Part shown: positions 3,308 to 27,258 of the stretch, one piece after another
Layout of the letters: every line of letters starts with the position of its first letter
Numbering within the stretch: the stretch's first letter is position 1
Source of the DNA: an uncultured Bacilli bacterium
Lineage (GTDB): Bacteria; Bacillota_I; Bacilli_A; RF39; UBA660
Assembly (NCBI GenBank): GCA_934096555.1
Contig: CAKOMD010000002.1
Location: 3,128 to 67,127, forward strand
Length of the DNA: 64,000 nucleotides
Reading direction: 5' to 3'
Translations under genes and position numbers: made by a program
The notes under the pieces: model-generated
What the model saw: only the letters and a program-made list of their open reading frames with translations
The model's database searches: none
What the model was told of the DNA's origin: nothing

Positions 3308-3501
3308 TTTTCATAAATTTATATAGCTATAGTGAAGAATAAAAAGAAAAGATGCACTTTGTACAAAGAATATTACCGCTATGCCGACATCATTAGTGCC
3401 AAGATACTTTGATGCATTTGCTATATTCTTAAAAAAAGATTCAAAATATGTACCTTAATTTGCTGCTAGAATAAATAACATTACAAAATATCAATAATAC
3501 G

Positions 3502-23360: not shown

Positions 23361-23447
23361 GCTTGTGTGGCGGAATTGGTAGACGCACTGGACTCAAAAT
23401 CCAGCGGTATAAAAGCCATGTGGGTCCGAGTCCCACCACAAGCACCA
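23361..23447 (+). tRNA. tRNA-Leu (anticodon CAA)
   Basis: GCTTGTGTGGCGGAATTGGTAGACGCACTGGACTCAAAATCCAG...long variable arm...GGGTCCGAGTCCCACCACAAGCACCA. The acceptor stem GCTTGTG/CACAAGC pairs fully, the anticodon loop is CTCAAAA, and CCA is encoded. Confidence 0.9.
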
Positions 23448-23483: not shown

Positions 23484-23575
23484 AATATAAGAAAATAGAG
23501 GACTAATAACCAAATTAGTTCTCTTTCTTTATATAACTAGTAATGATGACTAAAAAGGCGAACAGTTAATTGTAA

Positions 23576-23822
23576 TGAAAAAAATAAAAATACAAAAAAA
23601 TCAAAAATAAGAAACAACAGAAAATAGAAAAAACAAGAAAAAGCAAAAAATAATTTACATACATTGCAGCGGCAAATTGAGGACAAACGCTTATAAAATA
23701 AGGAGAAACTAAATATAATATACAAGAAAATGAAAAAACAAAAAATATAAAAAATAGAAAAATTGAAAAAGCGAAAAAAATAAAAATGTAAAAAATGTAA
23801 AAAAATAAAAAAGCAAACAAAA
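23576..23822 (+). repeat. A-tract / polypurine-biased low-complexity block (two segments)
   Basis: 23576-23654 and 23727-23822 consist almost only of A5-8 runs separated by 1-4 nt (e.g. AAAAATGTAAAAAATGTAAAAAAATAAAAAAGCAAACAAAAAAC), with very few T on the + strand. A ~70-nt mixed segment separates them. Confidence 0.8.
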
Positions 23823-23827
23823 AACTA

Positions 23828-23856
23828 TTGACAACTAAATTCACCTAATATATAAT
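23828..23856 (+). promoter_or_regulatory. consensus sigma-A promoter of nrdD
   Basis: TTGACA (23828-33), exactly 17 nt, TATAAT (23851-56). The nrdD ATG lies 32 nt downstream, behind GGAAAGGAAG. Confidence 0.65.
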
Positions 23857-23887
23857 TAACTTGTATCGTAGGAAAGGAAGTAAAACA

Positions 23888-26191
23888 ATGATTGAAACAG
23901 AAGAAAAATTAGAGACAATAGAAGTCGTAAAAAGAAACGGAAAAAAAGTGGAGTTTGATGGTGCTAAAGTAGCCATGGCTATCAAAAAAGGCTTTGATAG
24001 TGTACTATTAGATGCCGAAGAAGACGAAAAAAAATATAACACTAAAGATATTCAAAAAGTATATCAAGCTGTAATTAAAAAAATAGCTAAAGATTATCTA
24101 CCATTAGGTAAAATAAAAATAGAAGAGATACAAGATTTAATTGAAGAGAATCTTAAAAAGTATGATTATCAAGATGTCTATGAAAGCTTTTCAGAATACA
24201 GACAAAGAAGAGCTAATGCTAGAATAGCTTTTAGAGACGATAAAAATATGGCTAAGCTTCAAAAAAGTATTGAAGGCCTTGGCCTTAGAAGTGCTACTGA
24301 AGAAGATTCTAAGAGAGAGAATGCCAATATCGATGGTAACTCTGCGATGGGTACAATGCTTCAGTTTGGTAGTACTATATCAAGAGCGTTTACAGAAGCA
24401 TACTTAATGAAAAAGAAATTTGCTGAAGCTCATGATAATGGTGATATTCATATTCATGATATGGACTTTGAAGCTATGGGTACTACAACTTGTATGCAAA
24501 TAGATTTAAATAAATTATTTAAAGGCGGCTTTTCCACTGGACATGGACACTTAAGAGAACCACAAGATATCATGAGTTATGGAGCCCTAGCGGCCATTGC
24601 TATCCAGTCTAACCAAAATGATCAGCATGGCGGACAGTCAATACCGGCTTTTGACTATTATTTAGCACCAGGAGTATTAAAGACATTTAAAAAGCAATTT
24701 AAACAAGCTGTATATGAACTTTTAGATTTTACAGATTTTATTAGTTTTGTCAATATGGATAGAGTAGAGAAAGAAATAGACAAACTAACTAGTATAGATG
24801 TTGATTTAACAGTATTTGAAGGTATCTATAAAGATAGTACTGAAGTAAAGAAAATTTTTGAAAAAGGTTATGAAACAGCATATAAGAAAACAGATAGAGC
24901 AACATATCAAGCTATGGAAGCTTTTGTTCACAATTTAAATACAATGCACTCAAGAGCAGGAGCTCAAGTACCATTTTCAAGTGTAAACTTTGGCACTGAT
25001 ACTTCACCAGAAGGAAGAATGGTAATGAAAAATTATCTATTAGCGGTAGATGCTGGACTAGGTAAGAATGAAACTCCAATATTCCCAATATCAATATTTA
25101 AAGTAAAAGAAGGAGTTAACTATAATCCAGGAGATCCTAATTATGATTTATTCAAGTTATCTTGTAAAGTATCCGCTAAAAGATTGTTCCCTAACTTCTC
25201 ATTTATGGATTCATCATTCAATAAACCTTATTATAAAGGAGACTATAATACAGAAGTTGGTTATATGGGATGTAGAACTAGGGTAATTGGTAATGTTGTA
25301 GACGAAGATAAGGCTGTAACACCAGGACGTGGTAACTTATCATTTACTTCAATTAACTTACCAAGACTTGGTATTAAACATGGTATTGTCAGAAATGATG
25401 AAACTGATATGAAAGGCTTTTACGAAGAACTAGGAGAATTAATGGACTTAGTAAAAGATCAGCTACTAGAAAGATTTGAAATTCAGTGTAATAAGAGAAT
25501 ATATAACTTCCCATTCCTACTCGGTCAAGGAATATGGATTGATTCTGAAAAATTAAAAATGAATGATAGACTAAGAAAAGTATTAAAACATGGAACATTG
25601 TCAATAGGTTTCATTGGACTAGCAGAATGCTTAAAAGCTTTAATTGGAAAACATCATGGCGAAAGTGATGAGGCTCAAAAACTTGGTCTTGAAATAATTG
25701 AGTTCATGAGAAAAAGATGCGATGAGTATTCAGAAGAATATCATCTAAACTTCACATTACTTGCTACTCCAGCAGAAGGTTTATCAGGAAGATTTGTTAA
25801 TATTGATAAAGCTATATATGGTAAGATTAAAGGAGTTACTGATAGAGAGTACTATACTAACTCATTCCATGTACCAGTATACTATAATATATCAATAGTA
25901 AATAAAATTAAGAAAGAAGGACCATATCATAAATATACAAATGCAGGACATATTAGTTACATTGAATTAGATGGTGATACTACTAATAACCTTGAAGCAT
26001 TTGAAAAGATAGTAAGACTTATGCATGATAATGATATGGGATATGCTGCAATTAACCATCCAGTAGATAGAGATCCAGTATGTGGTTATGTTGGTGTAAT
26101 CGGAGATGTTTGCCCAGGATGCGGCAGAAAAGCCTATGAAGGCGTTCCAGTAGAAAAAGTAAATGAATATAAAAATAGTTGTGATTGTTAA
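23888..26191 (+). CDS. nrdD: anaerobic ribonucleoside-triphosphate reductase (class III), lacking the glycyl-radical tail
   Basis: N-terminal ATP-cone-like VVKRNGKKVEFDGAKV, then DIHIHDMD, catalytic-core motifs, and a C-terminal Cys cluster CGYVGVIGDVCPGCG...SCDC. It ends at TAA 26189-91, before any RxxGY glycyl-radical motif. The start is placed at ATG 23888 because the track start (23861) lies within 5 nt of the -10 box. Confidence 0.9.
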   Translation: MIETEEKLETIEVVKRNGKKVEFDGAKVAMAIKKGFDSVLLDAEEDEKKYNTKDIQKVYQAVIKKIAKDYLPLGKIKIEEIQDLIEENLKKYDYQDVYESFSEYRQRRANARIAFRDDKNMAKLQKSIEGLGLRSATEEDSKRENANIDGNSAMGTMLQFGSTISRAFTEAYLMKKKFAEAHDNGDIHIHDMDFEAMGTTTCMQIDLNKLFKGGFSTGHGHLREPQDIMSYGALAAIAIQSNQNDQHGGQSIPAFDYYLAPGVLKTFKKQFKQAVYELLDFTDFISFVNMDRVEKEIDKLTSIDVDLTVFEGIYKDSTEVKKIFEKGYETAYKKTDRATYQAMEAFVHNLNTMHSRAGAQVPFSSVNFGTDTSPEGRMVMKNYLLAVDAGLGKNETPIFPISIFKVKEGVNYNPGDPNYDLFKLSCKVSAKRLFPNFSFMDSSFNKPYYKGDYNTEVGYMGCRTRVIGNVVDEDKAVTPGRGNLSFTSINLPRLGIKHGIVRNDETDMKGFYEELGELMDLVKDQLLERFEIQCNKRIYNFPFLLGQGIWIDSEKLKMNDRLRKVLKHGTLSIGFIGLAECLKALIGKHHGESDEAQKLGLEIIEFMRKRCDEYSEEYHLNFTLLATPAEGLSGRFVNIDKAIYGKIKGVTDREYYTNSFHVPVYYNISIVNKIKKEGPYHKYTNAGHISYIELDGDTTNNLEAFEKIVRLMHDNDMGYAAINHPVDRDPVCGYVGVIGDVCPGCGRKAYEGVPVEKVNEYKNSCDC

Positions 26192-26209
26192 AGAAAAGAG
26201 GTAATAAAA

Positions 26210-26380
26210 ATGAAAGAAGAAGAAAAAGTTAAATTAGTCGGTGAGGGTGTAGGTTTTGAAAGAATCAGAAGAATTACAGGATATCTAGTAGGAACTGTAG
26301 ACAGATTTAACAATGGTAAAAGAGCCGAGGAAAGAGATAGAGTAAAACACTCTACTGAAGGCTTAATGAAGGCAAAATAA
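26210..26380 (+). CDS. stand-alone NrdD glycyl-radical domain (56 aa)
   Basis: MKEEEKVKLVGEGVGFERIRRITGYLVGTVDRFNNGKRAEERDRVKHSTEGLMKAK carries the class III RNR C-terminal signature R-I-T-G-Y-L...N.GK..E...R..H. It is in the same frame as nrdD, 6 codons after its TAA, and preceded by AAAGAGGT 7 nt upstream of the ATG. It falls below the ORF-track size cutoff. Confidence 0.75.
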   Translation: MKEEEKVKLVGEGVGFERIRRITGYLVGTVDRFNNGKRAEERDRVKHSTEGLMKAK

Positions 26381-26943: not shown

Positions 26944-26956
26944 GCTCTCTTTTTAT
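26923..26956 (+). terminator. terminator after nrdG (convergent with the minus-strand gene)
   Basis: AGAGAGC / GCTCTCT stem spanning the nrdG stop, followed by TTTTATA. Confidence 0.55.
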
Positions 26957-27258
26957 AACATATACATTGAACCATCATCTTGGTAAGAATTACTATTAGT
27001 TAGTCTCTGCTCTAAAGATTTAACTCTTGTCTCTAAACTGTTTAGTCTACTATTAATATTATATAAAGTATTATTGCTATTATCATAACCATTTATATTA
27101 TTTTGTAGATTGTTAGGACTATAATTCATTCCCTGAGGAGCGTATGGCATCCCATTCATTAAACTACCTGGAGGCCCTTGATAACCAAAATTACCATACA
27201 TCATATTACCTGGCATATTCTGAAAATAACCATACTGCATCATATCTCTATTATCCAT
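26953..27258 (-). CDS. small low-complexity protein (Met/Asn/Gly/Tyr/Gln-rich) with C-terminal coiled segment
   Basis: The 101-aa translation begins MDNRDMMQYGYFQNMPGNMMYGNFGYQGPPGSLMNGMPYAPQGMNY and continues ...LNSLETRVKSLEQRL. RBS is AAAGGAA. It is the only minus-strand gene in this stretch. Confidence 0.55.
   Translation of the reverse strand: MDNRDMMQYGYFQNMPGNMMYGNFGYQGPPGSLMNGMPYAPQGMNYSPNNLQNNINGYDNSNNTLYNINSRLNSLETRVKSLEQRLTNSNSYQDDGSMYML

Follow-up and report, generated by a model that had tools for sequence, protein, structure and literature searches.

Can a class III ribonucleotide reductase (RNR) have its radical-bearing glycine encoded by a separate gene? This question is raised by a 64,000-nucleotide stretch of DNA from an uncultured Bacilli bacterium (assembly GCA_934096555.1, contig CAKOMD010000002.1, positions 3,128 to 67,127; "the window" hereafter means this whole stretch). 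The window carries an nrdD gene that stops at a TAA past its Cys-rich region without the glycyl-radical motif (Table 1). Six codons further on, in the same frame, an ATG opens a 56-codon open reading frame (ORF) that contains the missing motif and has its own Shine-Dalgarno (SD) sequence, AAAGAGGT, 7 nt upstream. These features were described in a short account made from the DNA letters (the original prediction), and all of them hold: they can be read from the sequence, and the match of the long ORF to the NrdD model NF005497 ends at position 715 of 746. Among the three explanations offered there (an autonomous radical-bearing small subunit, readthrough of the TAA, and a recent nonsense mutation or sequencing error), our results support the first: the gene is free-standing at 75 of 80 genome loci, it is under purifying selection, and unlinked and phage-borne copies exist, from which action in trans would follow. 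We consider it quite probable that the locus encodes a functional two-subunit class III RNR, the radical of which would reside on an exchangeable 6-kDa protein activated by NrdG.

The long ORF, hereafter the nrdD body, has the C-terminus ...CPGCGRKAYEGVPVEKVNEYKNSCDC, with ...DRDPVCGYVGVIGDVCPGCGRKAYEGVPVEKVNEYKNSCDC as the last residues before the stop. The six in-frame codons AGA AAA GAG GTA ATA AAA separate the TAA from the ATG of the small ORF, the product of which is MKEEEKVKLVGEGVGFERIRRITGYLVGTVDRFNNGKRAEERDRVKHSTEGLMKAK; it ends with TAA at 26378-26380, and nrdG starts 2 nt past this stop. The body matches positions 3-715 of the 746 positions of NCBIfam NF005497 (1006.6 bits, cut-off 764) and the small ORF matches positions 711-745 (E 4.7e-12), so the two pieces are exactly complementary on this model. 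The body also scores 568 bits against TIGR02487 (cut-off 326), matches positions 1-531 of 562 of PF13597 (E 3.4e-187) as well as the ATP-cone PF03477, and has Prevotella copri NrdD (8P23, E 6.7e-168) as its closest solved structure. In Pfam the small ORF has PF13597 (NRDD) as its sole match, and in NCBIfam all its matches are NrdD models. H188-x-H190-D191, N145-x-N147, C202 and M460-G461-C462-R463 are invariant among 74 aligned relatives, and by this measure the body appears to keep all the residues expected in an active enzyme. The M-G-C-R form of the finger loop is that of the formate-dependent type (PMC9669993). An NrdD model above its cut-off, the finger-loop and nucleotide motifs and an adjacent nrdG place the locus in class III; the Gly loop, expected on the same chain as the barrel, is found on the separate 56-aa ORF, and its Gly24 belongs to the single R-x-x-G-Y-type motif in the whole window. 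In P. copri NrdD, the glycyl-radical domain comprises residues 676-739, with the zinc site, the buried Gly711 loop and a tail across the barrel top (PMC11226230). The split point lies inside the domain so defined, between zinc ribbon and loop: the zinc ribbon is kept on the body, and loop, helix and tail make up the small protein.

One might suspect an error of sequencing or assembly, or a nonsense mutation of recent date that has made nrdD a pseudogene, though nothing beyond a stop within what is usually one gene speaks for it. The homologues of both pieces argue strongly against it. When the small ORF was searched against 5.8 billion proteins, the best 120 matches were all 55-77 aa long, and the identical 56-aa protein occurs on 326 contigs (NCBI, ENA and Logan assemblies, from many samples). 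A search of 1.84 billion representatives of 50%-identity clusters yielded 2098 matches at E <= 0.001, of which 714 reach E <= 1e-10. Short proteins (54-196 aa) make up all of the best 150 of the 2098 clusters, the longer ones among them having the appearance of fragments or of calls extended too far. Among the 120 best homologues of the body (81-92% identical), every protein has a length of 749-791 aa and 119 are without the Gly loop, P0329 being the single fused one. Six independent assemblies of the species share the stop, and the same locus is present in a human-gut metagenome-assembled genome (MAG), GCA_902477185.1. The body exceeds the curated family cut-off, and the split architecture is kept across bodies just 52-80% identical to that of the window. 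The nonsense mutation or sequencing error of the original prediction does not survive the 326 contigs and the 119 loop-less bodies, and we regard an artefact or a decaying gene as extremely improbable.

Selection on the small gene points in the same direction. For a 38-codon core (VGEGVGFERIRRITGYLVGTVDRFNNGKRAEERDRVKH), compared between the window and 85 loci, the median proportion of nonsynonymous differences (pN) is 0.11 and that of synonymous differences (pS) is 0.82, the synonymous values being saturated, so that pS is to be taken as "far larger" and not as a distance. The comparison with L087, a locus of the nearest sister lineage, gives pN 0.011 and pS 0.584. The Gly-loop core is under strong purifying selection, and a pN far below pS is not what a decaying gene would show.

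We then asked how the two genes are arranged in other genomes. A scan of one genome per species returned at least 559 confirmed relatives of the small ORF among 599 matched stretches, and the best 80 were examined. The small ORF is free-standing beside a body without Gly loop at 73 of these 80 loci, and free-standing with no nrdD body within 4 kb at two (L032 and L071); one locus (L040) has a fused NrdD followed by an extra small Gly-loop ORF, and four (L031, L060, L064 and L074) have a fused NrdD only. At 61 of the 80 loci, nrdG is found no more than 400 nt downstream of the small ORF. The carriers include the cultured Acutalibacter caecimuris M00118 and Bacterium 1XD42-1, the complete, circular genome OZ006970.1 (L049), and MAGs labelled Bacilli, Tenericutes, Erysipelotrichaceae, Oscillospiraceae, Lachnospiraceae, Mogibacterium, Fibrobacter, Desulfovibrio, Succinatimonas and Anaerobiospirillum. 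The labels thaumarchaeote, Rickettsiales and Muribaculaceae are probably binning errors.

The arrangement of the free-standing loci bears on whether the two ORFs are translated into one fused NrdD by readthrough of the TAA or by a ribosomal shift or hop, in which case the small ORF would not be independent. In the window, the two ORFs do share a frame and are separated by six sense codons. Across the free-standing genome loci, however, the small ORF starts between -1 and about 300 nt from the body stop, and each of the three relative frames and of the three stop codons is represented. The nearest sister lineage (L087-L091) has a TAG stop, a 16-nt gap and the +1 frame, so the in-frame layout of the window is incidental. 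The chosen start of the small ORF is ATG at 74 of the 75 free-standing loci, and an SD-like sequence (mostly AGGAGG or AAGGAG) precedes it at nearly all 75, starts with such a sequence having been favoured by the script that chose them. A cis event, moreover, cannot join the unlinked or phage-borne copies described below. Joining by an intron or intein meets a similar difficulty: the gaps could not hold the former, being too short, and the ORF offers no space for the latter. An Rfam scan of the whole window found two tRNAs only, and no riboswitch or recoding element near nrdD. The gaps, frames and starts seen in the sister lineage and across loci, and the unlinked and phage-borne copies, make recoding, including the readthrough suggested originally, very unlikely. 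The comparison with orthologs proposed in the original prediction thus has two outcomes: the split, the ATG start and the SD-like sequences are conserved, whereas the stop codon and the frame vary.

Some copies of the small gene are found away from any loop-less body. In L032, a MAG of Candidatus Crickella equi, a 53-aa small gene without nrdD within 4 kb is located between a Crp-type regulator (PF13545, PF00027) and a rubrerythrin (PF21349, PF02915) at L032:3278-4740, neighbours that hint at oxygen-stress regulation. In a Desulfovibrio MAG (L071:3908-4123), the small gene likewise has no nrdD within 4 kb and is preceded by a 797-aa ORF, which by eye we take to be a GGDEF/HD-GYP signalling protein. 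The third case, L040:1500-4678 (MAG Bacillota OH_SBrB_46, JAEWRE010000033.1), has a complete fused NrdD of 779 aa with its own Gly loop, followed after 29 nt by a 94-aa ORF and then by nrdG and presumably NrdR, our putative reading of the next ORF. This 94-aa ORF combines an N-terminal extension of ~50 aa with a second, near-identical Gly loop, and may be a true spare part or a duplication intermediate.

Viral contigs provide a still larger set. Scanning IMG/VR returned at least 565 confirmed relatives, of which the best 80 were examined (L092-L171, with the small ORF near position 3501). At 73 of them, a short open frame (44-216 codons) with the Gly loop has no NrdD body or nrdG within 3.5 kb; four carry a fused NrdD and three a split gene with the body nearby. 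Read from the best start, the ORFs of the 73 orphan loci are mostly about 40-70 aa long, nearly all begin with ATG, and most have an SD-like sequence. Five viral loci were checked for their neighbours, and all are phage contexts, with genes for the terminase large subunit, RusA, a replication initiator, a DNA repair exonuclease and an endolysin among these five. The viral copies comprise 66 distinct DNA cores and 49 distinct protein cores, with pN < pS in all 2145 pairs. Two phage loci, L148 and L152, encode a 96-aa long form, and by eye its N-terminal domain is similar to the one in L040. In PHROGs, the small Gly-loop protein is not represented by a family of its own, and among GenBank phage records the matches are nine short unannotated metagenomic fragments only. 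By analogy, the solitary viral minigene looks like a phage auxiliary gene, as phage T4 Y06I is for pyruvate formate-lyase (PFL). Unlinked copies, the extra copy beside a fused NrdD and phage-borne copies together imply that the small protein would act in trans.

We propose the following scheme for the locus in the window. The 767-aa body would supply the ATP-cone, the substrate flap, the barrel with Cys462 in its formate-type M-G-C-R loop, and an Asp/Cys3 zinc ribbon. The 56-aa protein, translated alone from its own ribosome-binding site, would supply the buried Gly loop with Gly24 and the C-terminal helix and tail that cross the barrel top in ordinary NrdD. The two would assemble into a functional alpha unit; NrdG would abstract a hydrogen atom from Gly24 to form the glycyl radical, and the loop, inserted in the barrel of the body and facing Cys462, would let the radical shuttle between Gly24 and Cys462 as in fused enzymes, with formate as the presumed reductant. 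Oxygen inactivates glycyl radical enzymes by cleaving the chain at the radical glycine. As this glycine is now on a 6-kDa protein, a cell or a phage could re-arm the 88-kDa enzyme by swapping only the small piece, and a small free substrate might also be easier for the activase to reach. Three published observations are in keeping with such a scheme: PFL activase can place a radical on a 7-residue peptide (PMC13450708), YfiD/GrcA restores oxygen-cleaved PFL (PMC8683613), and the glycyl-radical domain of NrdD is a mobile, largely rigid unit (PMC11226230).

As the body in the window lacks a Gly loop itself, the small protein there is an obligate partner rather than a spare. It may be that NrdD-type Gly-loop miniproteins as a whole form a large unrecognised family of exchangeable radical cartridges, comprising obligate subunits, spare parts and phage auxiliary genes, a generalization on which we are evenly divided. 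The cartridge would then be obligate where the body has lost its loop, as in the window, and would serve as a spare where an intact NrdD stands next to it (L040) or where it is unlinked and has oxidative-stress genes nearby (L032); in phages of anaerobes it would arm or re-arm the host reductase for the supply of deoxynucleoside triphosphates (dNTPs) during infection. The likeness to YfiD/GrcA drawn in the original prediction is apt for L040 and the phage variants and does not extend to the window.

Several points weigh against the two-subunit reading. The 80 genome loci were picked by their similarity to the small ORF, so the 75 free-standing cases give a biased prevalence, and fused relatives are in fact common, making up 110 of the 238 proteins from two NrdD homologue searches. 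Zinc ribbon and Gly loop move together as a single domain in fused NrdD, and a link between the zinc site and radical generation has been reported. Both proteins are known here from their genes. When the body and the small ORF were modelled as one chain, with the natural six codons as spacer and X in place of the stop, AlphaFold2 placed the small protein as an undocked helix, with predicted local distance difference test (pLDDT) values <50 for the zinc ribbon and for residues 749-830 (body tail and small protein). The control, the naturally fused P0420, also has pLDDT <50 in its zinc ribbon and Gly loop; because this control fails too and the alignment is shallow (rows at least 69% identical), the model says nothing either way.

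Our view, finally, covers 64 kb of the genome, and another intact RNR may lie elsewhere. In that case a different, complete RNR could do the work, the body without Gly being inactive or serving, for example, as an ATP-cone nucleotide sensor, and the small protein could be a spare part or regulator. The extra copies beside the fused NrdD of L040 and in phages fit this alternative, as do the Crp-type regulator and the rubrerythrin flanking the L032 copy and the regulation of E. coli grcA by FNR. Against it stand the invariant catalytic residues of the body and the tight packing of body, small ORF and nrdG, with nrdG just downstream at most of the genome loci, and the absence of the Gly loop from 119 of the 120 best body homologues is hard to square with an inactive relic. 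We give this alternative a small chance, and the functional two-subunit enzyme remains our preferred reading.

The segment that follows the zinc ribbon offers a clue to how the split arose. Column frequencies were computed over 128 split bodies, 104 fused proteins and 279 small proteins. Fused relatives have C-x-x-C-G-R-[TH]-E-x-D-G-V-K-F-E-R-I-R-R-I-T-G-Y, and small proteins have V-G-E-G-V-G-F-E-R-I-R-R-I-T-G-Y before and at the loop. Split bodies have C-x-x-C-G-R-x-x-x-E-G-V-[SP]-[VI]-[ED]-[KR]-[VIL]..., in the same register as the fused relatives, and in the window E-G-V-x-V-E-K-V of the body tail stands in the register of D-G-V-K-F-E-R-I after C-x-x-C-G-R. The tail of the split bodies thus appears to hold a degenerate, vestigial copy of the first eight residues of the loop segment, and we infer that the split may have arisen by a partial tandem duplication of the start of this segment. 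Re-fusion by a deletion between the two copies is possible. Split bodies form two groups, 68-80% and 52-57% identical to the body of the window; the fused L031 (73.5% identical) falls in the first group and the other four fused forms (54-55%) fall in the second. Duplication with possible re-fusion is consistent with this interleaving of fused and split forms, for which the neighbour-joining tree is one without bootstrap.

The fused protein P0329 (791 aa; ENA, on 2 contigs, the longest of 5.2 kb) is 86% identical to the body of the window. Its N-terminus is nearly that of this body, and its C-terminus is of the fused type (C-G-F...C-N-R-T-E-A-D-G-V-K-F-E-R-I-R-R-I-T-G-Y). P0329 is either a very recent re-fusion or recombinant, or else a chimeric assembly.

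Pairs of Cys residues recur at the ends of these proteins. Many split bodies among L001-L091 have a terminal pair (NSCDC, NCCK, ECCR, CGCQ or HCDC), and such a pair also closes several small proteins and two fused NrdDs (KTCC, CSCTK, ECNCD or VDCCN). Other lineages among L001-L091 have a conserved ...ELRKKYPxMPxFxGxE tail instead.

The predicted zinc site of the body departs from the usual class III pattern. The first zinc Cys was originally described as missing (DRDPVCGY), and the alignment bears this out: N-H-P-V-D-R-D-P-V-C-G-Y in the window faces N-R-C-L-D-C-G-Y in P. copri NrdD, with Asp at the place of the first zinc ligand, and the pattern is D-x-x-C ... C-x-x-C as against C-x-x-C ... 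C-x-x-C. Asp occupies this place at 78 of the 80 genome loci, split and fused, while the Cys is kept (D-R-C-P-V-C) only in L061 and L067, two loci of gammaproteobacterial type. As the Asp is also found at all five loci with a fused Gly loop, the substitution characterizes the clade and has no connection with the split. The C-x-C at the end of the body tail was considered as a substitute first zinc ligand and rejected as a general explanation, since fused relatives have the Asp without the tail and many split tails are without Cys.

Compared with canonical single-chain class III RNRs (P. copri 8P23, phage T4 NrdD 1H79 and E. coli NrdD), the system in the window belongs to the same family by curated profiles and shares the ATP-cone, the NxN flap, H-x-H-D, M-G-C-R, the zinc ribbon, the R-x-x-G-Y sequence and the adjacent activase. 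It differs in that a gene of its own encodes the Gly loop and C-terminal tail and that the body has Asp as the first zinc ligand and a tail of 20-45 residues that ordinary NrdD does not have. Like YfiD/GrcA of E. coli and Y06I of phage T4, the small protein is a free-standing glycyl-radical-loop protein that would complement a large loop-less enzyme; phage-encoded versions exist, and activation by the enzyme's own radical-SAM activase is expected. It is not a member of that family, as it matches the NrdD C-terminus (PF13597) and has no PF01228 homology; it is also shorter, at 56 aa compared with about 127 aa, and is the only Gly loop available to the body.

A split RNR of another class is known. 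In class II NrdJa and NrdJb of Pseudomonas aeruginosa, as in the window, the C-terminal domain is encoded by a separate adjacent gene, and it is so in one subclass and fused in others (PMC5704485). The likeness is purely architectural: the enzyme in the window is class III by profile, not class II (B12-dependent), and the piece detached in NrdJa and NrdJb is a Cys-rich reduction domain of 150-220 aa, not a radical-bearing one. Other glycyl radical enzymes also have small proteins bound to their catalytic subunit, namely HPAD gamma, BSS beta/gamma and MASS beta/gamma/delta. According to a 2026 review, small subunits occur in these three enzymes only, are Fe-S or rubredoxin-like accessory subunits, and do not carry the radical glycine (PMC13450708). 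In all the glycyl radical enzymes described in the reviews consulted, the radical glycine is on the catalytic chain, and spare parts have been reported for formate lyases (PFL) only (PMC13450708, PMC8683613).

No split NrdD or NrdD-type spare part was found in the searchable full-text literature, which mostly excludes subscription journals; within the same bounds, the earlier remark that no described NrdD case was known of stands. A PF13597 entry in a paper on endolysins was considered as a literature precedent and rejected, as it is a misannotated full-length T4-like NrdD. The split NrdD is apparently a real, conserved and undescribed architecture, and the phage-borne orphan copies are an unexpected extension of it. 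If the cartridge reading is true, this would be the first glycyl radical enzyme with the radical residue obligately on another polypeptide and the first spare-part system beyond formate lyases, and the subunit composition of class III RNR would have to be revised. It would also provide a natural system in which to study the access of the activase to the glycine, the possibility of activating the loop away from the enzyme, and the contribution of the zinc ribbon; in fused enzymes the buried loop makes such questions difficult to approach. The architecture further suggests a cheap repair route for gut anaerobes after transient exposure to oxygen and points to a new class of phage auxiliary genes acting on dNTP supply. 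For annotation, the small genes are at present unnamed or labelled as NrdD fragments, and the bodies are at risk of being flagged as "truncated".

Table 1. Coordinates of the split nrdD locus and its sequence features in the window.
Feature	Position	Strand	Description or basis
Promoter-like TTGACA-17-TATAAT, 12/12	23828..23856	+	Consensus match only; 32 nt 5' of nrdD start
nrdD body, 767 aa + TAA	23888..26191	+	ATP-cone, NxN flap, alpha/beta barrel, zinc ribbon; without glycyl-radical loop
Cys462 codon, Y-M-G-C-R-T-R finger loop, expected thiyl-radical cysteine	25271..25273	+	Role from homology
Zinc-ribbon segment, D729-x2-C732 ... C742-P-G-C745, Asp at usual first-Cys place	26072..26122	+	Alignment to 8P23
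Body tail GRKAYEGVPVEKVNEYKNSCDC	26123..26188	+	Column frequencies, split vs fused vs small proteins
TAA stop codon, nrdD body	26189-26191	+	Read from sequence; same stop in six independent assemblies of species
Shine-Dalgarno-like AAAGAGGT	26195-26202	+	7 nt 5' of ATG 26210
Small subunit gene, 56 aa + TAA	26210..26380	+	Gly loop and C-terminal helix/tail of class III RNR as separate ORF
GGA codon, Gly24 of R-I-T-G-Y, predicted radical site	26279..26281	+	Aligns with family R-x-x-G-Y motif
nrdG, radical-SAM activase, 186 aa	26383..26943	+	TIGR02491 145.5 bits vs cut-off 126.1; PF13353, PF04055

The features of the locus are collected in Table 1. The true start of nrdD is most likely the ATG at 23888, not the TTG at 23861 of the ORF list, because it is called so in six independent assemblies. 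A scan for promoters and terminators between nrdD, the small ORF and nrdG found nothing above chance; as no terminator-like site separates them, the three genes fit one operon. The G+C content of the window is 28.4%.

Just 5' of the nrdD promoter, a segment of ~300 nt (23540-23830) is extremely A-rich on the + strand, its A-runs being interrupted by short G/C-containing words. It is bounded on one side by a tRNA (23361-23444) and a terminator-like hairpin (23497-23524), and on the other by the promoter pair. On the far side of the locus, a 101-aa ORF on the minus strand (26953-27258) is convergent with nrdG. It has no Pfam match and is called as a gene in 6/6 assemblies of the species; in its product (MDNRDMMQYGYFQNMPGNMMYGNFGYQGPPG...) M, N, Q, Y and G are abundant, and the C-terminus resembles a coiled coil.

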